From the NCBI GenBank assembly GCA_963666205.1, contig OY762654.1:672001-736000 (forward strand): DNA of 64,000 nucleotides, written 5' to 3'. The stretch comes from Synergistales bacterium. Lineage in GTDB: Bacteria > Synergistota > Synergistia > Synergistales > JAFGMB01. The position numbers and the translations under genes were made by a program. Under the pieces are notes generated by a model, which was not told the origin of the DNA, made no database searches, and saw only the letters and a list, made by a program, of their open reading frames with translations. This document shows positions 10,391 to 59,160 of the stretch, in pieces (the stretch's first letter is position 1; each line of letters begins with the position of its first letter).

Positions 10391-13384
<2,994 letters not shown>

Positions 13385-13513: not shown

Positions 13514-15050
<1,537 letters not shown>

Positions 15051-15139: not shown

Positions 15140-15167
15140 ATAATATCATTTTTAAAATAGAAGTCAA
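15140..15167 (-). promoter_or_regulatory. rRNA operon sigma70-type promoter
   Basis: TTGACT-16 bp-TATTAT with TG extension and a GC-rich discriminator. A boxA-like ACCTTGACAG occurs in both the leader (~15095) and the ITS (~13422). Confidence 0.65.
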
Positions 15168-39670: not shown

Positions 39671-39839
39671 GAAAACGACTCCCCATGCAATCTGGTTATG
39701 GATCTATTTTTGAAAGGTTTTCTATTAACAGGGTAGCACAAGAACTACAAATTCCAAAGGATGTTCTCACCACTTGAAGTTCATTCTTTTCGCACTTATA
39801 GTTGACAAATAAGGCATTCAGAGTAAAAATATCTTTTGC

Positions 39840-39927
39840 ACCTGGGGGAGTCGATAAGAATCGGCTGAGAGGAGGCTTTTTGCCTCGACCCCTTGAACCT
39901 GATCCGGGTAATGCCGGCGAAGGGAAG
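39840..39927 (+). ncRNA. TPP (THI-box) riboswitch
   Basis: GGGGAG...GCTGAGAG...GACCCTTGAACCTGATCCGGGTAATGCCGGCGAAGGGAA matches the TPP aptamer consensus; upstream of thiT. Confidence 0.95.
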
Positions 39928-39998
39928 ACGGTCGCTTCTGTTCTCACAAAAACCTTCCTTCCTCCGGCTGTATGAAAATACTTGAAGGAGGAAATCCC

Positions 39999-40496
39999 AT
40001 GAATACAAAAACCCGAATGTTAGTTGAAGGAGGACTGGCAGCAGCCCTTGCCATTGCCCTCTCTTATCTCAAATTATGGAGGATGCCCCAAGGTGGCTCT
40101 GTTACCCTTGAGAATATACCCCTTCTCATTTTTTCCCTCAGATGGGGCATCAAAGCAGGTATGGGAGCGGGTGTAGTGGCAGGCATTGTCCAGCTTATGC
40201 TGGGAGGCTATGTCGTTCACCCGGTCCAGGCTCTGCTGGATTACCCCCTGGCCTTTGGAGCTCTTGGTTTGGCTGGTTCGGTCCGTCGCCCCATTTGGGT
40301 TGGGCTGAGTTTAGGTTCTTTTCTGAGATTCGCATGTCATGTTCTTTCCGGGGTTGTCTTTTTCGGAAGCTATGCACCGGAGGGAACGAACGTATGGCTT
40401 TACTCCACCATATACAATGGCAGCTATATGCTCCCAAACCTGGTAATTGCCTTTATCCTGACATACCTTATCTGGCCCAGACTTAAAAAGATCTGA
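39999..40496 (+). CDS. thiT: ECF S-component thiamine transporter ThiT
   Basis: MPQGGSV, HPVQALLDYPLAF, HVLSGVVFFGSYAPEG, YNGSYM; under a TPP riboswitch; ATG 39999 after SD AAGGAGG. Confidence 0.93.
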   Translation: MNTKTRMLVEGGLAAALAIALSYLKLWRMPQGGSVTLENIPLLIFSLRWGIKAGMGAGVVAGIVQLMLGGYVVHPVQALLDYPLAFGALGLAGSVRRPIWVGLSLGSFLRFACHVLSGVVFFGSYAPEGTNVWLYSTIYNGSYMLPNLVIAFILTYLIWPRLKKI

Positions 40497-44657: not shown

Positions 44658-46526
44658 CTAAAGCCCGAGCTCCTTTATTTTTAATGGACCAGGAATACCG
44701 TTTTTATTCCACCCCCGAGCCAAATAATATTCATCCAGCATTGAATCGTAATCCCTAATAGCACAATCATCTACCCCGCAATATTTACCAGATACAGGTT
44801 TCTCAAGTACCCTTGAGGGCAGATAATCATCTTTACGGGCAAAACCTTCCCTTATATTAAAAAGCCTCTGAAGGTTGTTCACTCTTTCACCTGTAGTAAG
44901 CAGTTCCCTGCCCGAAATATCCCAACCCGTAACTGAAGAGAGGAGGTCAGCATATATCTCGAGGTCAATTCCCATATACATATAGAACTTGCACGTTCCA
45001 AGCACATCCGGTATTACGCCTCCATCCTGCAGGATCTTGACAATCGCACCTTTGCCCTGCTCATCCCATCTGTCCACAAGAAGGGGGTCTGGAAGTCCCA
45101 TGGACTGAAGGCCAAAATCGATCTTTTGACTGTCATAAGCTTGAGCTTCAACGGGGTGGATGTGACACATTCCCCTATTGCCTGTTCCATAGGCAAGGGC
45201 AAGACATTTCCCAGATCTGGGATCATGGGCAGGCCCCTCCAGGCCTTTACAGTGAATCGCAAAGGAACGGGAAGCATCTCCTATGAAATCCGAAGCAGCC
45301 CTGACTCCCTTAGCCATGAGATCCCCAATGTCCTCCCTGAGAGCGATCTTCCTGATCATAACAGGAAGGTTTTCCTTTTCGCCCCAGTTCAAGCCAGACT
45401 CTTCTTCATGAATATCCTTTAAAAGGCCCTTTTCCTTGCACTCCATGAAAAATCCAATCACAGCACCTGTAGATATGGTATCAAGGCCATATTCATTGCA
45501 TAAATAGGAAGAATGAACAGCCGCATCAACATCACTGTTCATTATGAATGCTGTAAACGCTGCTATAGATTCATACTCTCCGCCATCATGTTCAGGGGTA
45601 CCGAAGGGCCCGTCAGGAACATGAACCCTGCGTCCACACCTGGCAGGACAGCCGGTATAACATCCCTGTTCCTTTATCTGGTTCCGTGCAAAAAAATGCT
45701 TTGAAATATCCACACCATTACCCCAGGAATTTGATGCCCAGTTCCTCGTAGGGAAATCACCCAACCTGTCACTGTGTTCCAATCCTCCCATGGTTCCCTG
45801 GGAACTGAAGAATGGAGTTGAAGGATCACTTTGCACTATCCCGTGAGCCTTCCGGATCTTTTTCATGAATTTTTCTCTATCAAACAAAGGGACTGATTTA
45901 TTCCCCCTCACTGCTACTGCAAGAAGGTTTTTGCTCCCCATCACAGCACCTCCGCCGCATCTCCCTGCAGCTCTGTGGCCATTCATAACTGTAGCAAAGG
46001 GAACAAGGTTTTCACCGGCCGGACCAATGGTAATGATCTCAAAACCACCTTCATTAAGTTCTTCTCTGATCCGCGTATCCTTTTCCAGTACAAGCAAACC
46101 CTCTAGAGAAGTCCCTTCACGAAACGAAACCATCCCGTTGTCGACAACAAGGTATACGGGAGAGGAGGATCTTCCCTCGATAAGAATATAGTCATATCCA
46201 GACTTCTTCATGGCAAAACCGTAGTTAGAACCCAGACGGGCTTCACCCCAGGCTCCTGTCAGGGGCGATTTGAAACATATTTCAATGCTACCACCCCCGG
46301 GAACCTGTGGCAGGGTAAGAGGACCAGTAGCTATAAAAATTTTATTACCTGGAGAAAGGGGGACCGTTCCTGAAGGTATCTCATCATAAAGGAATCTTGC
46401 ACCGATCCCTACTCCACCAAGATACTGCCTGAGCAGCTTTTCTTCCATCTTTTCGACGGAGTAAATCCTTTCAGTAAGGTCAATTCGCAAGAGGCTTCCT
46501 GCGTATCCAAACAATTCCTCTTTCAT
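44658..46526 (-). CDS. Aldehyde:ferredoxin oxidoreductase (tungstopterin AOR family)
   Basis: GYAG-LLRIDL, KSPLTG, IGPAGEN, AGRCG-GAVMGSKNL, CxxCxxxC, EYES, GLDTISTG, HDPR, YYLARGW. Confidence 0.92.
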   Translation of the reverse strand: MKEELFGYAGSLLRIDLTERIYSVEKMEEKLLRQYLGGVGIGARFLYDEIPSGTVPLSPGNKIFIATGPLTLPQVPGGGSIEICFKSPLTGAWGEARLGSNYGFAMKKSGYDYILIEGRSSSPVYLVVDNGMVSFREGTSLEGLLVLEKDTRIREELNEGGFEIITIGPAGENLVPFATVMNGHRAAGRCGGGAVMGSKNLLAVAVRGNKSVPLFDREKFMKKIRKAHGIVQSDPSTPFFSSQGTMGGLEHSDRLGDFPTRNWASNSWGNGVDISKHFFARNQIKEQGCYTGCPARCGRRVHVPDGPFGTPEHDGGEYESIAAFTAFIMNSDVDAAVHSSYLCNEYGLDTISTGAVIGFFMECKEKGLLKDIHEEESGLNWGEKENLPVMIRKIALREDIGDLMAKGVRAASDFIGDASRSFAIHCKGLEGPAHDPRSGKCLALAYGTGNRGMCHIHPVEAQAYDSQKIDFGLQSMGLPDPLLVDRWDEQGKGAIVKILQDGGVIPDVLGTCKFYMYMGIDLEIYADLLSSVTGWDISGRELLTTGERVNNLQRLFNIREGFARKDDYLPSRVLEKPVSGKYCGVDDCAIRDYDSMLDEYYLARGWNKNGIPGPLKIKELGL

Positions 46527-46613
46527 TTCAATCTACTCCTGTATTCTCAGATATCATAATTATACGGAATATTATAAATAAGGGAGGGCCAGGCCCCCCC
46601 TTGTCATATTAAC

Positions 46614-47543
46614 CTATTTTTTAATTAAACCTTCCGATATGAGATATTCCCTTGCTATATCCTCAGGGTCTTCGCCCTCATCAAATCTGTAGTTAAGTGC
46701 AGCCATGGTTTTCTCATCGATCTTGCCACTGAGCATGCTCAAGATATCCTTAACTTTAGGATATTTATCAAGGACTTCCATTCTTACAACATAAGCTGCA
46801 CTATATGCGGGGAAATATTCAAGGTCATCTTCAAGCATTACCAGATCAAGCTTCTTGATCCTTGAATCAGTGCTGTATGCAGCTATAACATCCACTTCTT
46901 CCTTGTCTATGGCCATGTACATCATTGAATACTGCATGGGAAGTACTTCCTTGAATTCGATCCCGTAGGCTTTAGACCAGCCAGGATAGGCATCGGGGCG
47001 AGTATCGAAGTTCTCATCCCCTCCTATTTTCCAGTCTTTGGCATATTGTTTAAGATCAGAAGCCTTCTTTAAATTGAATTTTTCTGCAGTCTCTCTTCTC
47101 ACTGCCATAACATAGGTATTATTGAATCCGAAGGGGTCGATCCAGGTAAAATTGAAGTTCTGTTCAAACCCTTCCTTGACTTTTCTGAAGGTTTCTTCTT
47201 TGGATAAATTAGGCCCTTCATAACGAAGGATCCCCGTTAACTGAGTACCAGTCCAGGTAACATATATATCAAGTTCTTTACCTACCATTGCCTGATGAAG
47301 CACTGAAGAAGCAGCAAATTCAGTACTGGTTTCAGTTTTCAGACTGGTATATTCATCCAGAAGCAGTTTTGCCATCCAGGCAAGGGTTATAGGTTCATTA
47401 ACTGTCTGGGCCCCCACTTTAAGTTTACCCTTGTAATTCATGGGATTATCCTCCGCTGCGACTCCGGCACCTGCAAAAAACGCAATTGCAAAGAGAACCA
47501 GTACTACCAGTGATACTGTCCTTGTGTACTTTCCGGTTAACAT
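46614..47543 (-). CDS. Osmoprotectant/quaternary-amine-type ABC transporter substrate-binding protein (OpuCC/OsmX-like)
   Basis: Signal peptide; DIYVTWTGT, GFNNTYVMAV, AYSTDSRI, LEDD-YFPAY. Confidence 0.87.
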   Translation of the reverse strand: MLTGKYTRTVSLVVLVLFAIAFFAGAGVAAEDNPMNYKGKLKVGAQTVNEPITLAWMAKLLLDEYTSLKTETSTEFAASSVLHQAMVGKELDIYVTWTGTQLTGILRYEGPNLSKEETFRKVKEGFEQNFNFTWIDPFGFNNTYVMAVRRETAEKFNLKKASDLKQYAKDWKIGGDENFDTRPDAYPGWSKAYGIEFKEVLPMQYSMMYMAIDKEEVDVIAAYSTDSRIKKLDLVMLEDDLEYFPAYSAAYVVRMEVLDKYPKVKDILSMLSGKIDEKTMAALNYRFDEGEDPEDIAREYLISEGLIKK

Positions 47544-47560
47544 GTATATCTTCCCCTTTC

Positions 47561-48262
47561 TTATTCTGTAAGATCTATACCAAGTTTCTCCGCTTTTCTA
47601 GCCATTCTTTTCGCCCTTTTTCGAGGGCTGTAATATTCCTGAAGGGATTTCAGAAACTGGTCTGCAAGCAGGGCAATTATTGTAGCCGGGATAGCACCTG
47701 CCAGTATTATTTCATACCTTATTGATGCCAGGCCTGAAAATATCAACTTGCCAAGCCCCCCTCCTCCTATGGCTGAAGCAAGTGTAGCCGTTCCAATTAT
47801 CCATACTGTAGCCACCCTTATTCCTGCAAGGAGAACGGGACGGGCTATGGGGAGCTGGACTTTCAGGAGAATCTGAAAATCAGTCATACCCATACCCTTA
47901 GCGGCCTGAACCAGATGCCTGGGGACACTTCTGATACCTGTGTAAGTATTCTGAATGACCGGCAACATGGCATAAAGGAAAAGAGCACAGATAGCATTAT
48001 CATTACCGATTCCGAAGAACAATATCAGAAATCCCAGAAGGGCAAGGCTTGGAATTGTCTGAAAAACATTAGCCAGACCAATAACATAGGGCGCAAGCTT
48101 TTCTTTTCTGGTGATATATATTCCCAGGGGGACACAGATAATAAGGGTCAGAGCAAGGGCTATAGCCGATATGGTCAGATGCTGTAATGTCAGTTTGAGA
48201 ATCCTGGGATAATATCTTGTAACGTATTTAAAAAATAGTACCAGAAGGTTATGCTGCATCAT
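47561..48262 (-). CDS. OpuC-type ABC transporter permease
   Basis: QTIPSLALL, NTYTGI, AAKGMGMT, IGGGGLG. Confidence 0.9.
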   Translation of the reverse strand: MMQHNLLVLFFKYVTRYYPRILKLTLQHLTISAIALALTLIICVPLGIYITRKEKLAPYVIGLANVFQTIPSLALLGFLILFFGIGNDNAICALFLYAMLPVIQNTYTGIRSVPRHLVQAAKGMGMTDFQILLKVQLPIARPVLLAGIRVATVWIIGTATLASAIGGGGLGKLIFSGLASIRYEIILAGAIPATIIALLADQFLKSLQEYYSPRKRAKRMARKAEKLGIDLTE

Positions 48263-49446
48263 GCTGATCCACCTCCTGTCACTCGTCGTTTCAGTCTTCC
48301 AATAGTGAGCCGGGCTATTCCGGCTTCAGTAATTACCCCAAGAAAAATATCATGTTCGTCAATGACCGGAATAGCATAGGGTCGATCGGCAAGCATTTCT
48401 GCTGCATCCCTCATGGTTGCCTCTTCCAGGTACAGTTTACGGTCCCTTCTGACGGCATCCCTTACCGAACCACCATTCCTGGATATTCGTTTAACATCCC
48501 TAAGATAGGCCATCCCTAACCATCGGTCGGCCCGTCTGTCGACTACCTGGATACATTCCATATCCTCATCTTCCATCATTGACAGGACATCAGATGCAGA
48601 TTGCTCCGGGTAGGCCTTTGCCCATGGATCCTCAACAAGGACGGCAACGGAGTCTTCCGGAGATATCTGGGAAAGCCTGTCTTCTCCGATGAAATTACGT
48701 ACAAATTCGGTGGCAGGATTTTCCTGGATCTGTGCAGGAGAACCCATCTGTTCAATCTTGCCCGACCTCATGATAACGACCCTGTCAGAAATCTTCAGTG
48801 CCTCGTCCATGTCATGAGTAACGAAAATAATGGTCTTATGAAGTTGTTCCTGGATTGACAGAAGTTCGTTCTGCAGTACCTCTCTGCTTATAGGGTCCAG
48901 CGCTCCAAAGGGTTCGTCCATAAGAATAACTTCAGGTTCTGCAGCAAGGGCCCTGAGTACGCCTATCCTTTGTTTCTGTCCCCCGCTCAACTGGTCTGGA
49001 AGTCTGTACCGGTATTTGGAGGGTTCCAGACCAGACATCTCCAGAAGTTCGTCCACCCTTTTCATGATCTTTTTACGGGGCCAGTTATGAAGCTTCGGGA
49101 CTATTCCAATATTCTCTGCTACGGACATATGAGGCATCAGTGCAATTTCCTGAACGACGTATCCAATGCCCCTTCTCAACTGTACCGGGTCGAAGGACAT
49201 AATATCCTTCCCTGCGACAAGGATCTTTCCCGAAGTACATTCCTCCAGCCTGTTAACCATTTTCAGAGTGGTGGTTTTACCACATCCGCTTGGCCCTATC
49301 AGACTTACCAGTTCTCCCTTTTCAATAATAAGATTCAGGTTTTCTACTGCTACGGTCGAATCTTCATAGACCTTTCTTACATCCTGAAAGACGACCATAC
49401 CATTATCCAGAGCCGGTTCATTTTCAGGTAAGGCTATCTGTGTCAA
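48259..49446 (-). CDS. OpuCA/ProV-type ABC ATP-binding protein with CBS pair
   Basis: GPSGCGKTT, LSGGQKQR, LMDEPFGALD, VTHDMDEA, C-terminal CBS-like region. Confidence 0.9.
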   Translation of the reverse strand: MTQIALPENEPALDNGMVVFQDVRKVYEDSTVAVENLNLIIEKGELVSLIGPSGCGKTTTLKMVNRLEECTSGKILVAGKDIMSFDPVQLRRGIGYVVQEIALMPHMSVAENIGIVPKLHNWPRKKIMKRVDELLEMSGLEPSKYRYRLPDQLSGGQKQRIGVLRALAAEPEVILMDEPFGALDPISREVLQNELLSIQEQLHKTIIFVTHDMDEALKISDRVVIMRSGKIEQMGSPAQIQENPATEFVRNFIGEDRLSQISPEDSVAVLVEDPWAKAYPEQSASDVLSMMEDEDMECIQVVDRRADRWLGMAYLRDVKRISRNGGSVRDAVRRDRKLYLEEATMRDAAEMLADRPYAIPVIDEHDIFLGVITEAGIARLTIGRLKRRVTGGGSA

Positions 49447-49448
49447 GG

Positions 49449-50564
49449 TTAATCATCCTTCCTCAATTGATCCAGAACAGAAGTAAAATTTCGAAGTAAA
49501 CTGGAATTTTCATCAGGAGTACCCACCGTTATCCTGATAGATCTTGAATACCCCCAGCCCGAACAGGGACGAATTATTATCCCTCTATCCAGCAAAGCTT
49601 CTGTGACAACAGAAGCTTCAAGGGGAGTTGTCACAAAAATAAAGTTGGATTGGGATTGGACGGGATCAAGACCCATTTCTTCAAATGCATCGAAGAGTTT
49701 CATCCTCTCCGCTCTTATCTTTGAAATAGCTTCTTTACATTCTTCCATATCCTTCTGCAGTGTCGCAAGTGCTCCTGCTATACCAACCCGGTTAGCATTA
49801 AAGGGTTCCGACACAGTATCTATGATGGTGGCAATTTCCTTTCGACAGAGGGCATATCCGACCCTTGCTCCCGCTAGAGCATAGGCTTTGGAAAAGGTTC
49901 TGACAGACACGATGTTCTTTCCCTTTTCTATATACGAAGATATGTCGGGCAGATTATCCGGGTCTGCAAATTCTGCATATGCCTCATCCAGAACTATCCA
50001 GCACGTTGCCGGTATTTCTTCGAGAAGTATATCCAGGCTTTCTTTCCTGAACATGGTCCCTGTAGGGTTATTCGGGTTATTAAGCCAGATAAGCTTTGTC
50101 CTGGAAGAAACTGCTTTCCTGATGGATGCCATATCAATATAAAAATTATCTTTCATTGGGATTCTTATAATATCTGCTCCCATAAGTTTGGATATCTCCG
50201 AGTAAAGAGGGTAAGTTGCAACAGGGATCAGAACTTCATCTCCAGGTTCGATAAAGGTTTTACCCAGGGTCTGTAGCATCCCCTCGGCTCCATGGGATAT
50301 GCAGATATTTTCGCCTTTAAGACGATAGAGACCAGCAATGGCATCCTTGATTTTCTTGAAGGAAACATCGGGGTAAGTATTAAGTTTGACAAGTTCCTTT
50401 TCCATATATTCCAGGGCAGCAGGGAACGGACCATATGGGTTCTCGTTCGAACCCAGTTTAATCACATTACTGAGACCTTTTTCGCAGATCACTTCTTCAG
50501 TAGTCTTACCAGGAACATATGGTTCTACATTAAGAACTGCTTTTCTGATTCCGTCCAGTGACAT
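49449..50564 (-). CDS. HisC-family PLP aminotransferase (histidinol-phosphate/aromatic aminotransferase-like)
   Basis: IKLGSNENP, NPNNPTG, LDEAYAEF, RTFSKAYALAGARVGY, RITVGT. The catabolic context argues against assuming a His-biosynthetic role. Confidence 0.85.
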   Translation of the reverse strand: MSLDGIRKAVLNVEPYVPGKTTEEVICEKGLSNVIKLGSNENPYGPFPAALEYMEKELVKLNTYPDVSFKKIKDAIAGLYRLKGENICISHGAEGMLQTLGKTFIEPGDEVLIPVATYPLYSEISKLMGADIIRIPMKDNFYIDMASIRKAVSSRTKLIWLNNPNNPTGTMFRKESLDILLEEIPATCWIVLDEAYAEFADPDNLPDISSYIEKGKNIVSVRTFSKAYALAGARVGYALCRKEIATIIDTVSEPFNANRVGIAGALATLQKDMEECKEAISKIRAERMKLFDAFEEMGLDPVQSQSNFIFVTTPLEASVVTEALLDRGIIIRPCSGWGYSRSIRITVGTPDENSSLLRNFTSVLDQLRKDD

Positions 50565-50567
50565 ATC

Positions 50568-52184
50568 TCAATAACACTCCTTCACTTTTATTTCTATCAG
50601 GGTAGGTCCCTTTTCATCAAAGGCCTGGCCAAGGATGCCGGGAAGTTCTTCAATAAAGGTAACAGTGTTTCCCTTTATTCCGTAGGCCCTTGCCAGGGCT
50701 GTGTAATCAAGACATTTATGGTCAACAGCAATGGTCTTGCCAGGATGACGGCCATTCTGATTCCGCCTGATCTCACCGTAGCCACAGTCATTCCAGACAA
50801 TAATGGGGAGAGTTAACCGAAGTTCTGATGCCACTGCAAGCTCAGGAAGAGTGAACTGGAATCCACCATCTCCAGCAAGAACACAGATCGCCTTGTCCGG
50901 GCAGGCCATTTTACTGCCTATTGCACCAGGGAGAGCTACTCCCAGGGTACCGAACCCCACCGGGTGAAGAAAAGATCTGGCTCCGGGGGAAGAGAACTCA
51001 CTGATCCCTACATAAGCAGGAGAAGTCATATCAGTCCAGATGGAGCCATCTTCGGGCAGACATCTCCTTATAATATTCATTAAAAGGACCATTGCGGGGA
51101 GTTCCTCACCCATACCGGTAACTTCGCCCAGGGATGCATAGCAGGTCTCTCTAAGCTTTATAACTTCTTCAGTCTTTACATGGCTATCGGCTTTACTCTT
51201 AATTTCACTGTCCAGAAACATTTGCACAACATCTTTTACATCACCCTCTATACCTATGTTACAGGTACGCTGATTGAAAAAAGATCCGGGATCAATATTT
51301 ACACATATAAGTTCCTTCCCAAGATCAATGGATCTTTTCCAGAAATCCGTAGGAGAAAATTCTGTACCCAGTGCTATAACAAGATCACTCTTTTGGAGGT
51401 AATCCTGAACAACAGGGAAATGAATACGGGCTCCAAGAGAAAGAGGATGGTCCTCTCTTACAACGCCCTTACCAGCACAAGTCGAAATTACAGGCGCTGA
51501 AATCGTTTCAGCCAGAAATGTAATCTCCTGACCGCATTTTACAGCTCCCCCACCAACCAGTATTACCGGATCTGTTGAACTTGAAATCTTCTCCACTGCA
51601 GATCTGGCAAGATCACTTCTGAAAATCAGACTATCAGGGCAGGAAGGTAAATTCTGATTGTCTACAGGCTGTTTCATAGCGAGTATATCCAGTGGTATCT
51701 CCACGTGGACAGGACCAGGCCGTCCTGAGATAGACAGGTGATAAGCTTCAAAAATCGACATCTCTATGGCAGAATGGCTCTCTACTCGACGACTTTCCTT
51801 GGAAACGGATGATACAAGCTGAGTGGAATTCCTTAATTCGTGAAGATAACCTGACCGGTAATGCAATGCAGATGTTTCTATCTGGCTTGATATGACAAGC
51901 ATGGGAATTGAATCATGATAAGCCTGCCCCATAGGAGTGATAATGTTGGTTAATCCAGGGCCAGTTATTACAAGGGCTACTCCGGGTTTACCGGATATTC
52001 TCGCATATCCGTCGGCCATAAAACCAGCACCCTGTTCATGCCTTGCCCCTACAGCAGTAATGGAACTTCCCATAAGATATTCATAAATATCCAGATTATG
52101 AATGCCGGGAATCCCGAATATATGTTCGACACCGAGTTTTTCCAAAGCCTGAATTACCAGTTCTCCTCCTGTTTTTAATTCCAT
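50568..52184 (-). CDS. ThDP-dependent 2-oxoacid decarboxylase (AruI / 5-guanidino-2-oxopentanoate decarboxylase-like)
   Basis: FGIPGIHNL, RHEQGAGFMADGYAR, GPGLTN, GYLHE, GFGTLG, GDGG...WND ThDP motif. Confidence 0.78.
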   Translation of the reverse strand: MELKTGGELVIQALEKLGVEHIFGIPGIHNLDIYEYLMGSSITAVGARHEQGAGFMADGYARISGKPGVALVITGPGLTNIITPMGQAYHDSIPMLVISSQIETSALHYRSGYLHELRNSTQLVSSVSKESRRVESHSAIEMSIFEAYHLSISGRPGPVHVEIPLDILAMKQPVDNQNLPSCPDSLIFRSDLARSAVEKISSSTDPVILVGGGAVKCGQEITFLAETISAPVISTCAGKGVVREDHPLSLGARIHFPVVQDYLQKSDLVIALGTEFSPTDFWKRSIDLGKELICVNIDPGSFFNQRTCNIGIEGDVKDVVQMFLDSEIKSKADSHVKTEEVIKLRETCYASLGEVTGMGEELPAMVLLMNIIRRCLPEDGSIWTDMTSPAYVGISEFSSPGARSFLHPVGFGTLGVALPGAIGSKMACPDKAICVLAGDGGFQFTLPELAVASELRLTLPIIVWNDCGYGEIRRNQNGRHPGKTIAVDHKCLDYTALARAYGIKGNTVTFIEELPGILGQAFDEKGPTLIEIKVKECY

Positions 52185-52452
52185 CCAATCACCATCCCTA
52201 TATTTATATTATTTTCCACTACAAAACAGCTTCAGCTGAGTGAAGAAAGGGCAGGTCTGATATCCAAAAAGAGAGCTAAATGGGAATATATTTTTTTATT
52301 TATTTGGGAAAACCAGAAATTCTATCCCCACTTAATACTGTGGGGCAAACATACCCTCTTCACAAACTGAACATACACAAATTTTGACTTACGATATTTT
52401 GGCAGGAATATAGACCTGGAGAAAAGAAACAAATATTTAGAACCTAAGCTTC

Positions 52453-52501
52453 AAAATAACTCAAGAGCAATCAAATGTCAAATAAAAATTAACATTTGAT
52501 T
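52453..52501 (-). promoter_or_regulatory. Promoter and inverted-repeat operator of the decarboxylase-transaminase-ABC-AOR operon
   Basis: Minus strand TTGACA (52481-52476) -17 bp- TATTTT; IR AATCAAATGT-N13-ACATTTGATT (52469-52501) overlaps the -35. Confidence 0.55.
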
Positions 52502-52546
52502 AATAAATAGATTATTTTTTACTTTGTTTAGATATTAGTAAAATCA

Positions 52547-53260
52547 CTAAAACGTATTCACGTGAAGGCTTATCTTACCAGTACACCTACTCATATCCCT
52601 AGTCCCTCCACCCCTTGCGACTATCCTGGCAAGCTCCTGGACATCATTAATTGATCTTCCCAATACATATTCGATGGAAGAACCTTTGTAGACAGCAACC
52701 GAAAGAGGAGCAGAAGGCCCGACCAGCCAACATCTGCATGCCGAATCAGCAAGACTCTGCCAGGTTCCATTGACAACTGAACTTGCGCTGAGAATCAGAA
52801 GATCACTCTTCGAGGCCATCCGGCACCCCATATCAAGAGGCAGGCTTTCTCCATAATGGTCATCAATTACATGAGGTGTTATCCCTGACTTCACAATAGC
52901 CTTGTAAAGAGGCTCAATAAAACCTACCATTAATACTTTTTTACAATTTCCGAGGGACGGAATAATTTCCGAGACTTTTCCCTGAACACCAAGAATAGCA
53001 TTAACAACTGCCACAGCAGCGCAACGGTCACCGGGGTATGAAGAACCTGAAAGGTCAAGAAAGGAATTTACTGGAAGGGGAAGCTTAGAAAGAAAACTAA
53101 AAAGTTTTTCATTTCTGCTAACCTTTTCAGGAAAGGAAAAGGCAAGTCCTGCAGAATCATCATCCAGTACAGCCAGAGAGTACCGGATCCCTCTTATGAA
53201 CCTTTTTAACGATCTACCCTGAGCTTTTTCTCTTGCAAAAGAGAATAATTTTTCTTCCAT
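52547..53260 (-). CDS. DUF364/DUF4213-like Rossmann-fold protein
   Basis: AVAVVNA, KVLMVGFIEPL, LILSASSVVNGT, LVGPSAP pattern. Confidence 0.7.
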   Translation of the reverse strand: MEEKLFSFAREKAQGRSLKRFIRGIRYSLAVLDDDSAGLAFSFPEKVSRNEKLFSFLSKLPLPVNSFLDLSGSSYPGDRCAAVAVVNAILGVQGKVSEIIPSLGNCKKVLMVGFIEPLYKAIVKSGITPHVIDDHYGESLPLDMGCRMASKSDLLILSASSVVNGTWQSLADSACRCWLVGPSAPLSVAVYKGSSIEYVLGRSINDVQELARIVARGGGTRDMSRCTGKISLHVNTF

Positions 53261-53904: not shown

Positions 53905-55155
53905 CTAGAACCTGTAACTGACAGAGATACCGAACATGTGAGTATCTGCATTAGTAATATCAGAATCAAAAACCCCTTCACCTGAACGACCTTCTATATG
54001 CCTCTCCTTGATATCAAGATAGGCATACGAAAGGTCATATATCCACTTGTCCCTGGTAAATCCGTAACCAATGCTGTAGATCTGACGCCCATTGGCAGGA
54101 ACTATATAGTCTACTGTCTCATCAGGGACAGGGCTATCATCATAGACATAACCAAACCTGAGCCAGGAATTTTCCGAGAGGGCATGTTCGATCCCTAACT
54201 GATAACGCCAGACATCATCCCAGTTTTTGGGAGTTGAAGTAACGTCAGAATCGGGGCCATAGAGGTCCATACCGTAATTGATGGTCAATTTATCGTAACT
54301 ACTCCATCTCGTGTATATGGCATCAGCTTCAATCGATGTTTTTTCAGTTGCCTGGAAAGCTATTCCAGCGCTGAAAGATTCGGGAAGAGTCACTTTCCCT
54401 GCTCCGGTCGTATCCGGGAAAAGATACGCCGGGGTATCTGAAGGTACGGTAAAATCAGCGTTACCCTCTATGTTCTGTTCTATCTCGCTCCTGTAGAAGA
54501 AGCCCATTCTGATACGATCAGCAGGTTTAAAGTGCATGGCAAAATTCCAGCCCCAGCCGATATCATCTCCCTTGAGCTGGGCATCGATATCCGAAGGGAG
54601 AGAAAAAAGAGCTCCAGGAATCTTTTTTTTCTGCTCGAACTCAAACCACATGACCTCCATTCCTGCGGCTATAGCGAATTTTTCCGAAAGCTTTACAGCA
54701 AGGGTAGGGGTTAGGGAGAAACTCTGGATACAGCCATAATAATTATTATATTTTCCCGGCCAATCCTGATCGAATTCGGATCCCAGACCAAAACGTGATG
54801 TCGCAGATATACCGAACCAGTATTTCTCATTAAGCTGTTTTGTATAGTAGAAGTGAGGAGGAATCCAGATCTTATCCACATTGGAAAAACTCTGACCCAA
54901 ATCATTGAATCCTACATTCAGACTTGGCTTAATAGCGGTAAGACCGAACATTATGTTTTCACCCTCAAGCTGGGTGATACCAGCAGGATTATACACCAGA
55001 GCAGAAGGATCATCTGCTCTTCCCACCAGTGTTCCTCCCAGGGCATTTCCTCTGGAACTGAATTCATAAAGGGCAAAACCTGCCGCAAAAGAAGAACCAG
55101 CAACGCAAAGAATCAAAAATATCGAAAGAAAAATAGCACGAATAAACTCTCTCAA
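53905..55155 (-). CDS. OmpP1/FadL family outer-membrane transporter
   Basis: Signal peptide followed by AGFALYE, conserved NPAG, beta-strands, C-terminal SYRF. Confidence 0.9.
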   Translation of the reverse strand: MREFIRAIFLSIFLILCVAGSSFAAGFALYEFSSRGNALGGTLVGRADDPSALVYNPAGITQLEGENIMFGLTAIKPSLNVGFNDLGQSFSNVDKIWIPPHFYYTKQLNEKYWFGISATSRFGLGSEFDQDWPGKYNNYYGCIQSFSLTPTLAVKLSEKFAIAAGMEVMWFEFEQKKKIPGALFSLPSDIDAQLKGDDIGWGWNFAMHFKPADRIRMGFFYRSEIEQNIEGNADFTVPSDTPAYLFPDTTGAGKVTLPESFSAGIAFQATEKTSIEADAIYTRWSSYDKLTINYGMDLYGPDSDVTSTPKNWDDVWRYQLGIEHALSENSWLRFGYVYDDSPVPDETVDYIVPANGRQIYSIGYGFTRDKWIYDLSYAYLDIKERHIEGRSGEGVFDSDITNADTHMFGISVSYRF

Positions 55156-55213
55156 ATCATAAGACCTCCCAGGTAGAAATAGAATGTAAAGAACAAAACT
55201 CTAGACTTCTTTA

Positions 55214-55840
55214 TTAACTATCTTCATACTGATGAAGACTGAAGAGGCTTCTGACGAGAAGTTCCAGGGCCTTCTCTATACGTTTCCAGTCTTCATCTGA
55301 ATTCAGATCTATTCCAAGGTAAGTACCTGAAGTTTTAGCCCTCAGGAGAAGATAGGTAAAACCCGCAGAAAGTATTGCGGCAACAGCTGGAATATCAAGG
55401 TCTCTGGAAAGGTCTCTACCGATGCTCAACATCTCAATTAGCTGTTTACCCTGTCTTTCCCGTATTTCCGCTGTTTCAGCAGACAGATCATTTTTACCTG
55501 CGAGTTCCCCTCGTAGCAGTTCCTGGGCCATATTTCGTTTTTTTAACTCCCTCAGATATCCATTCAGCAGAGCCAGTGAAGAATCTGCCATAGATCCTTC
55601 AGAAAGTTCCAGTTCTCCGGGAGCTATATCTGCAAGGGATGGCCAGAAATCCCCCTGTTCAGCAAATTCATGAAGCAATTCGGGCAATCCCCCGAAGTAG
55701 CGATAGATCAGGACCTTATCTATACCTGCTTCTCTGGCAATATTATTGATACCGATGTTATTAAAACCCTTCCTTTCCAGTATTGAACCCACTGCCTTCA
55801 GAATTCGTTTTTTAGTCTCTTCCCTATCTCGAATTTTCAA
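55214..55840 (-). CDS. TetR/AcrR family transcriptional regulator
   Basis: RDREETKKRIL...GINNIAREAGIDKVLIYRYFGG HTH. True start is uncertain (near 55840, after GGAGG); the 55897 start would run through the promoter. Confidence 0.88.
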   Translation of the reverse strand: MKIRDREETKKRILKAVGSILERKGFNNIGINNIAREAGIDKVLIYRYFGGLPELLHEFAEQGDFWPSLADIAPGELELSEGSMADSSLALLNGYLRELKKRNMAQELLRGELAGKNDLSAETAEIRERQGKQLIEMLSIGRDLSRDLDIPAVAAILSAGFTYLLLRAKTSGTYLGIDLNSDEDWKRIEKALELLVRSLFSLHQYEDS

Positions 55841-55847
55841 CACCTCC

Positions 55848-55902
55848 GTCACCCTGAAGTGACAACTTACCCACTTTAAGTCACTCTGGAGTGACATGTC
55901 AA
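55848..55902 (-). promoter_or_regulatory. tetR promoter with two palindromic operators
   Basis: GTCACCCTGAAGTGAC (55848-55863) and GTCACTCTGGAGTGAC (55880-55895), 32 bp apart; the latter lies between TTGACA (55902-55897) and TAAAGT. Confidence 0.7.
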
Positions 55903-56125
55903 GAATAATTTTCCCTTAACATGAAAACAATACATTTCCATGTTAATATATTTTCCAGTTCCACCGAGTGAATGTTCTCTAAAGTGTCAGAATTTTCTTG
56001 CTTGACTTTGTGGTATCGGTTTATTTCCATTTTTCCAAGAAATGGGATAAATTATATTGTTGTGTGTTCAAAGATCGAAACGTAGTACGTACAGATCTCG
56101 TTATTTTCAGGAGGAGGGCAACTCA

Positions 56126-56956
56126 ATGCAGGGAGGCAAAGAAAAAGATCTCGAAAGTATCGCAAATAATATTCGCCAGGACATCATAAGGATGATAACA
56201 GAGGCACGTTCAGGCCATCCCGGAGGGTCCTTATCGGCAGCAGATATCGTAACTGCCCTTTACTTCAGGGTTATGAAGCATGATCCTTCAAACCCCTGCT
56301 GGGATGGAAGGGACAGATTCATCCTCTCAAAAGGACACGCATGTCCAGTTATTTATGCAGCCCTTGCTGAAGCCGGCTATTTCCCCAAAGAGGAGCTGTT
56401 GACCCTCAGAAAGATAGGCTCAAGACTCCAGGGACATCCAGACAAATGCAAGCTTCCCGGATTTGAGGCCTCTACCGGCAGCCTGGGACAGGGGCTTTCA
56501 ATAGCTGCAGGTATGGCTCTGGGTCTCAAAATGGACGGCAAAACAAACAAAGTATACTGTCTTATGGGAGATGGTGAACTCGATGAAGGGCAGATATGGG
56601 AAGCTGCTATGACTGCCTCACATTACAAACTTGACAATCTCTGCGGTATTGTTGACAGAAACGGCCTTCAGATAGACGGATGTACTGCGGAAGTCAAAGA
56701 TATTGAACCCCTTGCTGAAAAATGGAAGGCGTTCGGCTGGAATGTTCTGGAAGTGGACGGTCATGATATTGAAGATATTGTCAAAAGTCTTAAACGTTTC
56801 AACCATACCCACTTCAGACCAACTGTTATCATTGCACATACAGTAAAAGGCAAGGGGGTCTCCTTCATGGCCGACCAGGCCGGCTGGCATGGCAAAGCTC
56901 CCAGTCCCGAACAGGCAGAACATGCCCTTAATGAACTTTCCACAGAGGTGATGTAG
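56126..56956 (+). CDS. Transketolase, N-terminal subunit
   Basis: SGHPGGSLS, DRFILSKGH, LQGHP, STGSLGQG, GDGELDEG; ATG 56126 after SD GGAGG. Confidence 0.93.
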   Translation: MQGGKEKDLESIANNIRQDIIRMITEARSGHPGGSLSAADIVTALYFRVMKHDPSNPCWDGRDRFILSKGHACPVIYAALAEAGYFPKEELLTLRKIGSRLQGHPDKCKLPGFEASTGSLGQGLSIAAGMALGLKMDGKTNKVYCLMGDGELDEGQIWEAAMTASHYKLDNLCGIVDRNGLQIDGCTAEVKDIEPLAEKWKAFGWNVLEVDGHDIEDIVKSLKRFNHTHFRPTVIIAHTVKGKGVSFMADQAGWHGKAPSPEQAEHALNELSTEVM

Positions 56957-57937
56957 ATGAAAGACTTAAAACTTTCAAACAATATTCTTGGTGATGTAGA
57001 AATGATACCCACCAGGTTCGGTTACGGTGACGGATTGGTAGCCCTCGGCAAGCAGAATTCTGACGTTGTAGTTCTTGGAGCAGATCTTACGTCATCCCTA
57101 TGTGCAGACAGATTCCAGAAAGCCTTTCCTGATCGATTCATTCAGATCGGTATCGCTGAACAGGATATGATGGGAGTTGCATCGGGTCTGTCAATCGTCG
57201 GAAAGATCCCCTTTGTCAGCACCTATGGAGTTTTCTGCACCGGGAGAGCATGGGATCAGTTGCGTACCACAGTGGCATATGCAAAGCTCAATGTAAAGGT
57301 TGGATCAGGCCATGGTGGTATATCTGTCGGTCCTGACGGGGCAACACACCAGGCTCTCGAGGATATAGCCATCACAAGAACTATACCCAATATGACAGTT
57401 ATAGTCCCCGCTGACTACCATGAAACTTTTAAAGCCACCATCGCTGCTGCTAACATGGATGGGCCGGTGATGATACGCTTTGGAAGAGAAAAGGTGCCCG
57501 TAATAACCACTTCTGAAACGCCCTTCGAGATCGGGAAAGCCGATATCTACCGGGATGGCAGTGATGTCTCAGTTATAGCTTGCGGCGTTATGGTCTATCA
57601 GGCCCTTGTAGCTGCGGAGAAACTGGCCAACGAGGGTATATCCGTACAGGTAATCAATTGTCACACAGTAAAACCCATAGATATGGAAACCATTATCGGT
57701 GCTGCTGCTCTGACCGGTGCAGTTGTTACAGCGGAAGAACACCAGGTAATGGGCGGTTTCGGAAGTGCAGTGGCCGAAGTTTTATGCCAGAACTGCCCTG
57801 TACCGATGAAAATGGTCGGGATACAGGACAGTTTTGGAGAATCCGGACAACCCGATGACCTGATGAGGAAATTCAACCTTCTCGATACAGATATCATAAA
57901 GGCTGTCAGAGAAGTCCTGAGAAAGAAAAGCAGGTGA
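56957..57937 (+). CDS. Transketolase, C-terminal subunit
   Basis: GIAEQDM, GPDGATHQ, EEH...GGFGSAV, FGESG. Confidence 0.93.
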   Translation: MKDLKLSNNILGDVEMIPTRFGYGDGLVALGKQNSDVVVLGADLTSSLCADRFQKAFPDRFIQIGIAEQDMMGVASGLSIVGKIPFVSTYGVFCTGRAWDQLRTTVAYAKLNVKVGSGHGGISVGPDGATHQALEDIAITRTIPNMTVIVPADYHETFKATIAAANMDGPVMIRFGREKVPVITTSETPFEIGKADIYRDGSDVSVIACGVMVYQALVAAEKLANEGISVQVINCHTVKPIDMETIIGAAALTGAVVTAEEHQVMGGFGSAVAEVLCQNCPVPMKMVGIQDSFGESGQPDDLMRKFNLLDTDIIKAVREVLRKKSR

Positions 57938-59160
57938 ATCAGATGGTAGACTTTGCTGACAGGATCAGCCGTTTGGGAACTGAGACAGCTTTTGCTGTAG
58001 GTGCGGAGGCAAAACAACTTGCCGACAGGGGATTCAAAGTTTATCCATTCCATCTGGGAGACCTCGATATTGCAACTCCGGAATATGTAGTGGAAGCTGC
58101 TGTTAAAGCTATGAAGGATGGCAAGACAGGTTATTGCGCAACTCCAGGTATTGCTCCCCTCAGGGAGGCTCTGGCAGATGATGTAGGTAAAGCAAGAGAG
58201 CTAAAGCTGGACATGGAAAACGTAAGTATACAGACCGGGGGAAAACCTGTAATAGGGAAATTCATCATGTCTCTCATGAACCCGGGAGATGAAGTCCTTT
58301 ACCCTAATCCGGGATATCCCATCTATGAATCTTTGATCAGATTTCACGGTGGAGTAGCAAAACCATATGGTTTTATAGAGAACGACCTTGGATTTGCTCT
58401 GGATTTTGACAGTATCGAAAGTCAGATAACCCCTAAAACAAAGATCTTTATTTATAACAACTACCATAACCCTACAAGCGCCGAATCAGATCCAGCTGAG
58501 ATGCAAAGACTGGCAGAATTATGCATAAGACATGATCTTTACGTTCTGAGTGATGAGGCATATTTCGATATCCTTTATGAAGGACAGGGTCAGAGCATAG
58601 CAAGCCTTCCGGGAATGTTTGATCGAACTGTTATTCTTTACACATTTTCGAAAAAATTCGCCATGACCGGGTGGCGCCTTGGTGCTGCTATAGGCCCCAA
58701 AGAAATAATATCCATAATTTCCAAACTTAACATAAATGATGAATCATGCTCAAATCATTTTGTCCAGTGGGCGGCAGTGGAAGCCCTTAAAGCTCCCGGG
58801 GATAACTACAACAGAATGCTGGCGGTTCTCAGGGAACGCAGGGATGTGGCTGTTGATATTCTCAACTCCATGGAGGGAATAAAGGTTCACCGGCCCAACA
58901 GCACTTTTTACCTTTTCCCGAACGTTACCTCTGCCATGAAACAACTGGACATCAAAGGAGTAGAGGAATTCAGAAAGGTCATCCTTGACAAAACAGGAGT
59001 TTCTTTTACCACTAGAGATCATTTTGGCACTCCCCTACCCTCTGAAACCCAGAAATATATAAGACTTGCCTATTCCGGGATCACAAAAGAAGACATCCTC
59101 GAAGGCCTTGGTTTGATGAAGGAATTTCTGGCATCTTCATCGCCCTGTAAAGCACTCTAG
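57934..59160 (+). CDS. Class I/II PLP-dependent aminotransferase (AspC-like)
   Basis: PGDEVL-PNPGYPIY, HNPT, SDEAY, FSKKFAMTGWRLG, YIRLAY; overlaps the upstream stop (GTGA). Confidence 0.9.
   Translation: MNQMVDFADRISRLGTETAFAVGAEAKQLADRGFKVYPFHLGDLDIATPEYVVEAAVKAMKDGKTGYCATPGIAPLREALADDVGKARELKLDMENVSIQTGGKPVIGKFIMSLMNPGDEVLYPNPGYPIYESLIRFHGGVAKPYGFIENDLGFALDFDSIESQITPKTKIFIYNNYHNPTSAESDPAEMQRLAELCIRHDLYVLSDEAYFDILYEGQGQSIASLPGMFDRTVILYTFSKKFAMTGWRLGAAIGPKEIISIISKLNINDESCSNHFVQWAAVEALKAPGDNYNRMLAVLRERRDVAVDILNSMEGIKVHRPNSTFYLFPNVTSAMKQLDIKGVEEFRKVILDKTGVSFTTRDHFGTPLPSETQKYIRLAYSGITKEDILEGLGLMKEFLASSSPCKAL

Follow-up and report, generated by a model that had tools for sequence, protein, structure and literature searches.

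A six-gene locus of a Synergistales bacterium contains what is probably a conserved module that takes up and converts a positively charged 2-amino acid, judging by its gene content and conservation. The module is common to three bacterial phyla, and no earlier description of it was found in the literature searched. An OpuC-type ABC importer, whose aromatic cage suits a quaternary ammonium, sulfonium or guanidinium group, would bring in the compound; a HisC-family aminotransferase would convert this 2-amino acid into the 2-oxo acid, and an AruI-clade ThDP enzyme would then generate the aldehyde one carbon shorter. Oxidation of the aldehyde to the acid would fall to a dedicated aldehyde:ferredoxin oxidoreductase (AOR) in this genome and in part of the Synergistota, ferredoxin being the presumed acceptor, and to a NAD-type aldehyde dehydrogenase (ALDH) in Bacillota and Spirochaetota. 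We infer all of these reactions, the electron acceptor and the direction of the pathway from sequence. The original prediction of a route by transamination, decarboxylation and oxidation was supported, and none of the computable objections to it held.

The window, the whole 64,000-nucleotide stretch of DNA that was analysed, carries six co-oriented genes on the minus strand (52184..44658 in its ORF list). The gaps computed from the ORF coordinates are 3, 2, -4, 17 and 87 nt, an exact match to the predicted layout, and the families proposed for all six products were upheld by domain and NCBIfam profile matches. Directly demonstrated were the gene families, a kept gene order, strict co-occurrence and enzyme swaps. 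Distribution was assessed in 41 related Synergistota genomes, this one (G000) included, which owing to their kinship are not independent samples. The ThDP gene was matched in 16 of the 41 at E<=1e-100, and the five-gene core occurs in the same order in 16, in one of them (G037) on a contig ending within the aminotransferase gene. Aminotransferase, ATPase, permease and binding protein follow in the same order at 13 of the 15 ThDP loci fetched, and G034 has all six genes. Orthologues of the ThDP enzyme, the aminotransferase and the binding protein share an identical set of 16 genomes and occur in none of the other 25; this bears out the predicted co-conservation, as does the presence of the core in Bacillota and Spirochaetota. 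Neighbourhoods across phyla were compared at 24 loci whose ThDP enzyme is at least 41% identical and at 56 loci with 40% identity or less. Genes for the binding protein, ATPase and permease adjoin the ThDP gene in 18 of the 24, and two more of these loci end within the aminotransferase gene; the 24 include Eubacteriaceae, Clostridiales, Fusibacter paucivorans and nine Spirochaetota loci. A P0005-like binding protein was found near the ThDP gene at none of the 56. The core set is thus known from Synergistota, Bacillota and Spirochaetota, and because it keeps its order in all three phyla the arrangement exceeds chance by far. By this comparison the conserved unit comprises five genes, encoding the ThDP enzyme, aminotransferase, ATPase, permease and binding protein, with the AOR as a lineage-specific add-on.

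The putative ThDP-dependent 2-oxoacid decarboxylase P0001 (538 aa, 50568..52184, minus strand), placed in an AruI-like clade by family profiles and a tree, contains three TPP_enzyme domains. Among NCBIfam models it matches NF005712 best (5-guanidino-2-oxopentanoate decarboxylase; 498.5 bits, cut-off 500). The suggestion that P0001 might be the acetolactate synthase (ALS) of the genome was rejected, as it reaches 318 bits on the ALS model TIGR00118, far under the 538-bit cut-off, and the genuine ALS, scoring 726 bits, is encoded at C1:2318309. All 32 module-linked ThDP homologues fall into one clade of a quick tree (SH-aLRT 98); it is this enzyme that stays constant across the forms of the module. 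The nearest non-module homologues, at 35-40% identity, adjoin a Dpp-type ABC transporter, a HAD hydrolase and a different aminotransferase.

The aminotransferase P0002 (371 aa, 49449..50564, minus strand) has an Aminotran_1_2 domain and scores 316.4 bits on the hisC model TIGR01141, over its 276.55 cut-off. It is predicted to turn the imported 2-amino acid into the 2-oxo acid. Aminotransferases of this type, at 47% identity or more, are confined to the 16 cluster-bearing genomes of the 41, the next-best matches reaching at most 37%. The genome has a second, stand-alone HisC-like gene that 27 of 40 relatives have kept and that, from its distribution, is likelier to encode the housekeeping enzyme than P0002. 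The objection that P0002 is simply the biosynthetic HisC was therefore answered in part: its type tracks the cluster and not histidine synthesis, but no hisC was found in the his operon of this genome, and so P0002 may play a double role here, in the module and in histidine synthesis.

The importer is encoded on the same strand by the next three genes. P0003 (395 aa, 48259..49446), a ProV/OpuCA-type ATPase with ABC_tran and C-terminal CBS domains, scores 370.1 bits on TIGR01186 proV (cut-off 326.6) and starts at a TTG codon downstream of a GGAAGGA Shine-Dalgarno-like motif. The start of the single permease gene, P0004 (233 aa, 47561..48262; BPD_transp_1, 95.5 bits), overlaps the ATPase stop by 4 nt. 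P0005 (309 aa, 46614..47543) is an OpuC-type periplasmic binding protein of subcluster F-III with a signal peptide, which scores 187.5 bits on OpuAC and matches OpuBC/OpuCC structures at E about 1e-53. With the aromatic cage of F-III binding proteins defined as in the excerpted text of PMC9732360, its cage residues are W97, N142/Y144, Y223 and Y247, with Q46, T100 and R182 as further positions; among 25 cluster-linked binding proteins all of these are invariant except Q46, which varies. P0005-type proteins, at 57% identity or more, occur only in the same 16 cluster-bearing genomes of the 41 (next-best matches at most 39%). The OpuC/OpuB importers of Bacillus subtilis and EgtUV, an ergothioneine importer, share with the module the binding-protein fold and the CBS-domain ATPase, and their binding proteins likewise belong to F-III; the four-sided aromatic cage with an Asn base and the carboxylate-orienting Gln and Thr positions described for them also recur in P0005 (PMC9732360, excerpted text). 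Unlike OpuC/OpuB, which have two permease genes, the module has one; P0005 has Trp at the first cage position, there Tyr or Phe, while Q101, Y205 and S227, invariant in the cluster-linked clade, differ in the OpuBC/OpuCC alignment, and the binding protein of the module is always in an operon with two catabolic enzymes. P0005 keeps every ligand-contacting position of OpuCC, a promiscuous osmoprotectant binder, and ordinary betaines could be among its ligands; five other OpuAC-family binding proteins are encoded in the genome.

The AOR-family protein P0006 (622 aa, 44658..46526, minus strand; AFOR_N and AFOR_C) is a full-length match to Pyrococcus furiosus AOR (1aor, E 5e-106) and retains the Cys motif. 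AORs of this type, at 50% identity or more, occur in 10 of the 16 cluster-bearing genomes and in none of the 25 cluster-less ones; six of the 16 are without one, and in five cluster-bearing relatives neither AOR nor ALDH adjoins the core. The 87-nt gap before the AOR gene contains a terminator-like G/C hairpin directly after the P0005 gene (46580..46602, minus strand), then TTATTTATAAT and a second TATAAT box, giving two such boxes in total. A hairpin with a T-run follows the binding-protein gene in 7 of 7 aligned loci, whether the next gene is AOR or gyrA. The five core genes are probably transcribed together, and the AOR gene next to them is probably transcribed from a promoter of its own or by read-through; because of the hairpin and TATAAT boxes, a single six-gene transcript is a candidate only. 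Of the self-contained six-gene module originally predicted, the co-orientation and the five-gene core stand, but the AOR is an accessory that only some of the lineages have, and it is probably transcribed separately. Contigs from RNA libraries of two studies cover the core; they are assemblies of metatranscriptome libraries in which DNA carry-over is possible, and a contig spanning two genes is not proof of one transcript. In run X4, three overlapping contigs cover 46466-52434 at a depth of ~60, which drops to 6 upstream of the contig end at 52434. A consensus scan placed a promoter-like site (TTGACA-17 nt-TATTTT, 10/12; 52453..52481, minus strand) ~270 nt upstream of the ThDP start codon, such matches being no commoner than in shuffles; its -35 region is kept in G001 and partly in G003. 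Together, these data weakly hint at a promoter there.

A reading in which the genes are mere neighbours without a common pathway, with a general osmoprotectant importer beside a biosynthetic HisC, an ALS-like anabolic enzyme and an aldehyde-scavenging AOR, would accommodate the hisC score of P0002, the his operon without hisC, the resemblance of P0005 to OpuCC and the hairpin ahead of the AOR. It is strongly disfavoured, indeed extremely improbable, given that the three core orthologues co-occur in 16 of 16 cluster-bearing genomes against 0 of 25 others, that the gene order is repeated in three phyla, that P0001 scores so far under the ALS cut-off with a true ALS elsewhere, that 27 of 40 relatives have the stand-alone HisC-like gene, and that the AOR subfamily is confined to cluster-bearing genomes.

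Enzyme swaps between phyla bear on the chemistry of the module. In nine Bacillota or Spirochaetota loci a protein of ~490 aa lies directly behind the core enzymes in the place of the AOR; the three of the nine scanned were all PF00171 aldehyde dehydrogenases, with betaine-aldehyde dehydrogenase as their top NCBIfam model (527-549 bits, under the 668.6 cut-off), and the solved structures related to the swapped-in ALDH include KauB (E 1.4e-114). Since a NAD-type ALDH takes the place of the AOR in these nine loci, the aldehyde step gains independent support. In two further loci (L035 and L038) a ThDP enzyme of the same clade is accompanied by a D-2-hydroxyacid dehydrogenase, an ALDH and a betaine-type importer whose binding protein is of a different OpuAC lineage; they differ from the module here in that entry enzyme and importer, in the absence of an aminotransferase from both and in having no AOR. 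In the quick tree, both variants fall within the ThDP branch of their own phylum. These swaps support a putative route from a 2-amino or 2-hydroxy acid through 2-oxo acid and aldehyde to acid. The solved relatives of P0001, among which no AruI-clade structure was found, include ALS, carboxyethylarginine synthase, oxalyl-CoA decarboxylase and 2-hydroxyacyl-CoA lyases, and would be consistent with a carboligase, or with a C-C or C-heteroatom lyase like Xsc, that bypasses the predicted aldehyde. This is very unlikely, as one flank of the ThDP gene repeatedly carries an aldehyde-oxidising enzyme from either of two unrelated families, and the other flank an enzyme that makes a 2-oxo acid, whether an aminotransferase or a 2-hydroxyacid dehydrogenase; the simplest account of both is that the ThDP enzyme decarboxylates to the aldehyde.

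Candidate substrates for the proposed module rank as follows: first an amino acid with a quaternary-ammonium or sulfonium group, for example N-epsilon-trimethyllysine or S-methylmethionine, with DMSHB grouped with the latter; then arginine or methylated arginine; and last histidine or aromatic amino acids. The same chemistry might conceivably serve to make a compatible solute, the imported precursor yielding a betaine- or sulfonium-type acid kept as osmoprotectant (S-methylmethionine or DMSHB to DMSP, or trimethyllysine to delta-valerobetaine), much as Bacillus subtilis converts choline to glycine betaine. The osmoprotectant-type importer with its CBS-domain ATPase and the betaine-aldehyde dehydrogenase affinity of the swapped-in ALDHs point this way, as do carriers such as Alkalispirochaeta, salar and soda-lake Spirochaetia MAGs, Fusibacter and Sporohalobacter salinus, and the marine-sediment label of the runs holding the stretch, although these habitat labels come from the titles of MAGs and the descriptions of runs rather than from measurement. 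DMSOB, the 2-oxo acid common to S-methylmethionine and DMSHB, is moreover a recognised intermediate (PMC9135737, excerpted text). An osmolyte role is nonetheless doubtful: osmotic regulation is without evidence at the locus, the five other OpuAC-family binding proteins serve ordinary osmoprotectants, and a ferredoxin-reducing AOR suits catabolism better than osmolyte synthesis.

The closest known reaction logic is that of the arginine transaminase (ATA) pathway of Pseudomonas aeruginosa (AruH, AruI, KauB), in which a cationic amino acid is transaminated, its 2-oxo acid decarboxylated by a ThDP enzyme and the aldehyde oxidised. The module could be an anaerobic version of it, leading from arginine through 2-ketoarginine and 4-guanidinobutyraldehyde to 4-guanidinobutyrate with the AOR replacing KauB, which is possible but unlikely. 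The best family of P0001 is the AruI-named NF005712, a name carried by many homologues in NCBI and JGI records, KauB is related to the swapped-in ALDH, and Synergistota are amino-acid fermenters. However, P0001 falls 1.5 bits short of the cut-off, and this automatic, subfamily-level name is the sole basis of the arginine label; the nearest homologues outside the module, at 35-40% identity, have the quite different Dpp-type transporter context. The module further departs from the ATA pathway in its HisC-family aminotransferase, in a dedicated importer of betaine type and not of a polar-amino-acid system, in its oxidant here, a ferredoxin-type AOR where Pseudomonas has an NAD-dependent ALDH, and in its strictly anaerobic hosts. 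The single ureohydrolase gene of the genome is unlinked to the cluster, and the hydroxyacid-dehydrogenase variants would require argininic acid, which is rare in nature.

The decarboxylase of the anaerobic phenylalanine route in Aromatoleum aromaticum EbN1 is of a different family from that of the module. In that Ehrlich-type route, phenylacetaldehyde is oxidised by PDH and a tungsten AOR (PMC6365974, excerpted text); the tungsten AOR and the NAD(P)-dependent dehydrogenase can stand in for one another, which mirrors the AOR/ALDH swap between phyla. The EbN1 substrate is aromatic and uncharged, its AOR is a three-subunit NAD-reducing AorABC, in contrast to the single-gene P. furiosus-type enzyme here, and its route has no linked importer. 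For an Ehrlich-type route ending in a tungsten AOR, originally proposed as undescribed, this organism provides a precedent (PMC6365974, excerpted text). The proposed route would yield no substrate-level ATP, which counts against the proposed reading in a fermenter.

The module comprises six co-oriented genes on the minus strand, whose coordinates proved exactly as originally predicted and whose computed gaps are 3, 2, -4, 17 and 87 nt; the predicted family of every product was likewise upheld by Pfam and NCBIfam. These genes encode, in order, a ThDP enzyme with three ThDP domains (P0001, 50568-52184), a class I/II aminotransferase scoring above the hisC equivalog cut-off (P0002, 49449-50564), a ProV-type ATPase with a CBS domain at residues 341-379 (P0003, 48259-49446; TIGR01186 370.1 bits against a cut-off of 326.6), a single permease (P0004, 47561-48262), a binding protein of the OpuAC fold (P0005, 46614-47543), and an AOR-family oxidoreductase with both AFOR domains (P0006, 44658-46526). 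It is probable that the module serves import, formation of a 2-oxo acid, decarboxylation and aldehyde oxidation; confidence in any named substrate is much lower. The top NCBIfam family for P0001, with a lead of more than 100 bits, is NF005712 (AruI, 5-guanidino-2-oxopentanoate decarboxylase), on which it scores 498.5 bits, 1.5 under the curated 500-bit cut-off, and the name of this family is carried automatically by many P0001 homologues. The alternative that P0001 is an acetolactate synthase (ALS) is ruled out at the family level, with 318 bits on TIGR00118 against a cut-off of 538.35, the true ALS of the source genome (C1:2318309-2319958) reaching 726.1 bits on the same model.

Co-conservation of the genes was borne out by a gene order that is kept within Synergistota and in Bacillota and Spirochaetota. 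A match to the ThDP enzyme at E<=1e-100 was found in 16 of 41 related genomes, the source genome included, and 20 kb were taken around each of the 15 matches outside it: the aminotransferase, ATPase, permease and binding-protein genes directly follow the ThDP gene in unchanged order in 13 loci, and the other two, both from one genus, have the ThDP gene alone. The aminotransferase query added two carriers, one with all six genes (G034) and one whose core genes lie on a 5-kb contig ending within the aminotransferase gene (G037). P0002-type aminotransferases (at least 47% identity) and P0005-type binding proteins (at least 57%) are carried by the same 16 genomes, the next-best matches among the 41 being at most 37% identical to P0002 and at most 39% to P0005. 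Carriers include every sampled member of families f1, f5, f7 and f9 and none of f2, f3, f4, f6 and f10; since kin are not independent, the 16 carriers amount to a handful of events. Two binding-protein duplications were seen in the order, one a tandem copy of the cluster-type gene (G028, 13854-15907 of locus L026), the other a second, unlinked copy with 62% identity and an in-frame TAA (G030:C1:1740642-1741538).

A pattern scan with one genome per species returned 595 relatives of P0001, the best 80 of which were examined; the nearest named record among these 80 is the ThDP enzyme of a MAG labelled Acetomicrobium hydrogeniformans, at 84% identity. Of 24 loci with at least 41% identity, five of which repeat loci of the order-wide set with the same gene order and are counted once, 18 carry genes for the OpuC-type ATPase, permease and binding protein next to that for the ThDP enzyme, and in two further ones the contig ends within the adjacent aminotransferase gene. 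The four without an adjoining core are one contig that is too short, one lone gene and two entry variants (L035 and L038). Beyond Synergistota, the carriers include nine Spirochaetota loci as well as Eubacteriaceae, Clostridiales and Fusibacter paucivorans DSM 12116. An OpuC-type binding protein adjoins the ThDP gene in none of the 56 loci at 40% identity or less within the best 80 of 595. In a quick maximum-likelihood tree all ThDP enzymes linked to the module, 32 in number, fall into a single clade (SH-aLRT 98) that stands apart from a Proteobacteria-dominated group (SH-aLRT 99) and within which grouping follows phylum and family. An alphaproteobacterial locus with a near ThDP homologue outside the module (L060) was considered as a substrate clue and set aside, its context of a Dpp-type ABC system, a HAD hydrolase and an unrelated aminotransferase being uninformative on arginine.

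The first five genes and the AOR gene are separated by a 10-pair hairpin with 7 G-C pairs (46602-46580, minus strand) after the stop codon of the binding-protein gene, followed by TTATTTATAAT, a second TATAAT box, AGGAG and the AOR start. An equivalent hairpin with a T-run follows the binding-protein gene in all seven aligned loci, whether AOR or gyrA comes next, and within family f1 the AOR gene lies between the binding-protein gene and gyrA in genus g1 only. Given the retention of the hairpin and, within f1, the restriction of the AOR insertion to g1, the core looks like a five-gene unit and the AOR gene like a neighbouring one. The stretch is represented in RNA-library contigs of two studies. 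In one library run (X4) three overlapping contigs cover 46466-52434 at a depth of about 60, falling to 6 upstream of 52434, a position just downstream of a TTGACA-17-TATTTT site (52481-52453), and in other runs every junction of the core (ThDP/aminotransferase, aminotransferase/ATPase, ATPase/permease and permease/binding protein) is bridged by contigs; these are assembled metatranscriptome contigs, for which DNA carry-over is possible and which do not prove a single transcript. RNA cover of the AOR gene is patchy, with more differences from the window, and its gaps carry no conclusion. The operon leader is conserved within the genus only, and a search of 52100-52600 with Rfam at E<=1 gave no regulatory RNA upstream of the operon. 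Compared with the window, the leader in the X4 contig contains 15 extra nucleotides at 52360, which reflects a strain difference.

P0006 matches PF02730 (AFOR_N, 220.5 bits) and PF01314 (AFOR_C, 372.4 bits), and its residues 6-622 align with residues 2-601 of the Pyrococcus furiosus AOR structure 1aor (E 5e-106), with retention of the C-x2-C-x3-C motif, a later Cys, and the EYE and CHI motifs. This is consistent with an AOR-family enzyme with a predicted tungstopterin and ferredoxin as predicted acceptor. Ten of the 16 cluster-bearing genomes have an AOR of the P0006 type (at least 50% identity), and the 25 others have none, with 40% as their best match; eight of the ten adjoin the core, one lies about 10.5 kb away and one is on a different contig, and the AOR paralogues of the source genome itself are 33-35% identical to P0006. 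The AOR is an accessory of the core: its subfamily is confined to cluster carriers and missing in six of the 16, and here its gene probably forms a separate unit after the hairpin. Clustering of the flanking ORFs of 28 loci revealed a family of about 490 aa which, in nine Bacillota and Spirochaetota loci, directly follows the core enzymes, the position held here by the AOR. All three of the nine members that were scanned are PF00171 aldehyde dehydrogenases (ALDHs) with betaine-aldehyde dehydrogenase as the top NCBIfam family, at 527-549 bits and under its cut-off of 668.6; KauB, the aldehyde dehydrogenase of the Pseudomonas arginine transaminase (ATA) pathway, is one of many solved relatives. 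That two unrelated aldehyde-oxidising enzymes alternate at one position is the strongest argument for aldehyde release by the ThDP enzyme. A precedent for the exchange of an AOR and an NAD-type dehydrogenase is the phenylalanine route of Aromatoleum aromaticum, for which passages of PMC6365974 describe the oxidation of phenylacetaldehyde by both PDH and a tungsten AOR.

The entry step varies as well. At L035 (Spirochaetia) and L038 (Erysipelotrichaceae) the gene for a ThDP enzyme of the same clade (47-49% identity) is flanked by those for a D-2-hydroxyacid dehydrogenase, for an ALDH and for binding proteins from another OpuAC lineage, with no aminotransferase gene among the neighbours. In the quick tree L035 nests in the Spirochaetota branch and L038 in the Bacillota branch, so that the entry swap occurred more than once; the Bacillota loci L036 and L039 have a D-2-hydroxyacid dehydrogenase plus an aminotransferase. 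Either entry enzyme would yield a 2-oxo acid, which fits the decarboxylase as the next step. Together, the non-homologous swaps of entry and exit enzymes strengthen the case for a real and widespread metabolic capability.

It could be argued that P0002 is simply the biosynthetic HisC of the organism. Its family score favours this, since P0002 reaches 316.4 bits on TIGR01141 (cut-off 276.55) and is the sole one of 26 matches in the source genome above the cut-off, whereas its context speaks against it. The histidine operon (G000:C1:335000-341600) consists of hisD and seven further ORFs including hisB; hisD and hisB are Pfam-confirmed at C1:335-339 kb, and the remaining ORFs owe their labels only to size and order. 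The operon contains none of the 26 HisC-model matches, and the HisC function of this genome is therefore encoded elsewhere. A second HisC-like gene (C1:2928120-2929298, 251.9 bits) stands solitary among housekeeping genes and has orthologues of 42-93% identity in 27 of 40 relatives, with or without the cluster. A third type, 33-37% identical to P0002, lies beside the histidine operon in one relative (G040) and is absent from that position in four other genomes examined. The P0002 type is found in cluster carriers only (16 of 41) and the second HisC-like gene is widespread, indicating that P0002 follows the cluster; it may also serve histidine synthesis in the source genome.

The known OpuC transporter has two permeases (OpuCB and OpuCD), in contrast to the one permease gene found here and in all related loci. 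P0005 matches PF04069 at 187.5 bits, with E values of about 1e-53 to OpuBC/OpuCC structures and about 1e-46 to EgtUC. With regard to a role as a general osmoprotectant importer, the P0005 type is confined to cluster carriers, and the source genome encodes five further OpuAC-family binding proteins. Mapping by motif and spacing, rather than by structure, from the passages of PMC9732360 that describe the cage of subcluster F-III binding proteins places the cage of P0005 at W97, N142/Y144, Y223 and Y247 and the carboxylate-orienting positions at Q46, T100 and R182. Among 25 cluster-linked binding proteins all of these are invariant except Q46, which varies; Q101, Y205 and S227 are invariant in the cluster-linked clade and different in the OpuBC/OpuCC alignment. 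These residues fit a putative ligand that combines a quaternary ammonium, sulfonium or similar cation with a carboxylate. Two candidate conversions would be compatible with the cage, with the carboxylate positions and with either entry enzyme, namely N-epsilon-trimethyllysine to delta-valerobetaine, and S-methylmethionine or DMSHB via DMSOB to DMSP. The natural DMSHB isomer is the D-form. PMC9135737 names DMSOB as an intermediate in one of its figure legends. A mention of trimethyllysine in 10.1101/072470 concerns DUF971 and is irrelevant to the module. More broadly, and tentatively, the module might represent a dedicated, so far unrecognised route by which anaerobes import 2-amino and 2-hydroxy acids with a quaternary-ammonium or sulfonium group and shorten each to its betaine-type acid. 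Arginine, the substrate suggested by the AruI family of P0001, albeit through an automatic subfamily name, is possible but not favoured because of the betaine-type importer, the hydroxyacid variants and a single, unlinked ureohydrolase gene in the source genome; the partner aminotransferase of P0001 is of the HisC type. A search of this genome for downstream enzymes of guanidinobutyrate or betaine-type acids gave that one ureohydrolase and no MttB-family methyltransferase, neither of which decides the substrate.

The pathway type is already known from the ATA pathway of Pseudomonas, and also from the Aromatoleum phenylalanine route. No description of the gene set was found in the full-text literature searched, of which subscription journals and supplements are mostly not part. 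What is new is that the ThDP clade is constantly paired with betaine-type importers, that the entry enzyme belongs to the HisC family, that an AOR subfamily is dedicated to the module, and that the module extends across phyla with modular swaps. An order-keeping five-gene operon in Synergistota, Bacillota and Spirochaetota points to a real, widespread capability of anaerobes, which public records label in unconnected terms as an arginine-pathway decarboxylase, a histidinol-phosphate aminotransferase and a glycine-betaine transporter. Identification of the substrate would correct these labels and define what the whole ThDP clade acts on and what a new clade of OpuC-type binding proteins binds; it could also give anaerobes a part in how methylated amino acids or sulfonium osmolytes are turned over in sediments, in brines and possibly in guts. 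If the quaternary-ammonium/sulfonium route were true, it would provide the genes behind conversions for which the microbial enzymes are known in part or not at all, and the ThDP clade would consist of cationic 2-oxoacid decarboxylases mis-named after AruI. Homologues are carried by named isolates, including Fusibacter paucivorans DSM 12116, Thermovirga lienii DSM 17291, Sporohalobacter salinus and Alkalibacter rhizosphaerae, so that the question is directly testable.

The flanks of the cluster vary by lineage (DUF364, FadL/TetR, GntR-FCD, ROK, OTCase-like, PTPS/FolE2, MCP and others), and no substrate-naming neighbour was found among the flanking genes across lineages. A co-oriented DUF364/DUF4213 gene (52547-53260) lies upstream of the ThDP gene, is kept there in family f1 only, and is separated from it by a fall in RNA-contig depth. 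Further upstream on the same strand, a FadL/TodX-family outer-membrane channel gene adjoins a TetR regulator gene (53905-55897). Two genes at 56057-59160 encode the N- and C-terminal halves of a split transketolase and precede one for a 408-aa class I/II aminotransferase; this trio is conserved near the cluster, and the FadL/TetR pair is kept, in two relatives (G001 and G003). The Fusibacter cluster likewise has a split transketolase pair in its vicinity, next to an RraA-like gene and 2-hydroxyacid dehydrogenases. In two Spirochaetia loci (L046 and L049, about 800-9650) the cluster adjoins a set of genes shared by the two, among them an OTCase-like gene, one for an M20 peptidase and several more; only the OTCase-like gene was scanned there, the M20 call deriving from a cluster mate in L028; we take this neighbour set to be reminiscent of anaerobic purine-degradation gene sets. 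Across the whole window, Rfam at gathering thresholds detects as regulatory or structural RNA only rRNAs and one TPP element. The latter, a TPP riboswitch (76.6 bits), is directly upstream of a ThiT/YuaJ-type thiamine transporter gene in the interval 39834-40496, about 4 kb downstream of the AOR gene, and probably has nothing to do with the cluster's ThDP enzyme. The source genome is a single Synergistota contig of 2.95 Mb, of which the window covers 672001-736000, and the bacterial rRNA operon inside the window (10038-15052) contains two tandem 5S rRNA genes.
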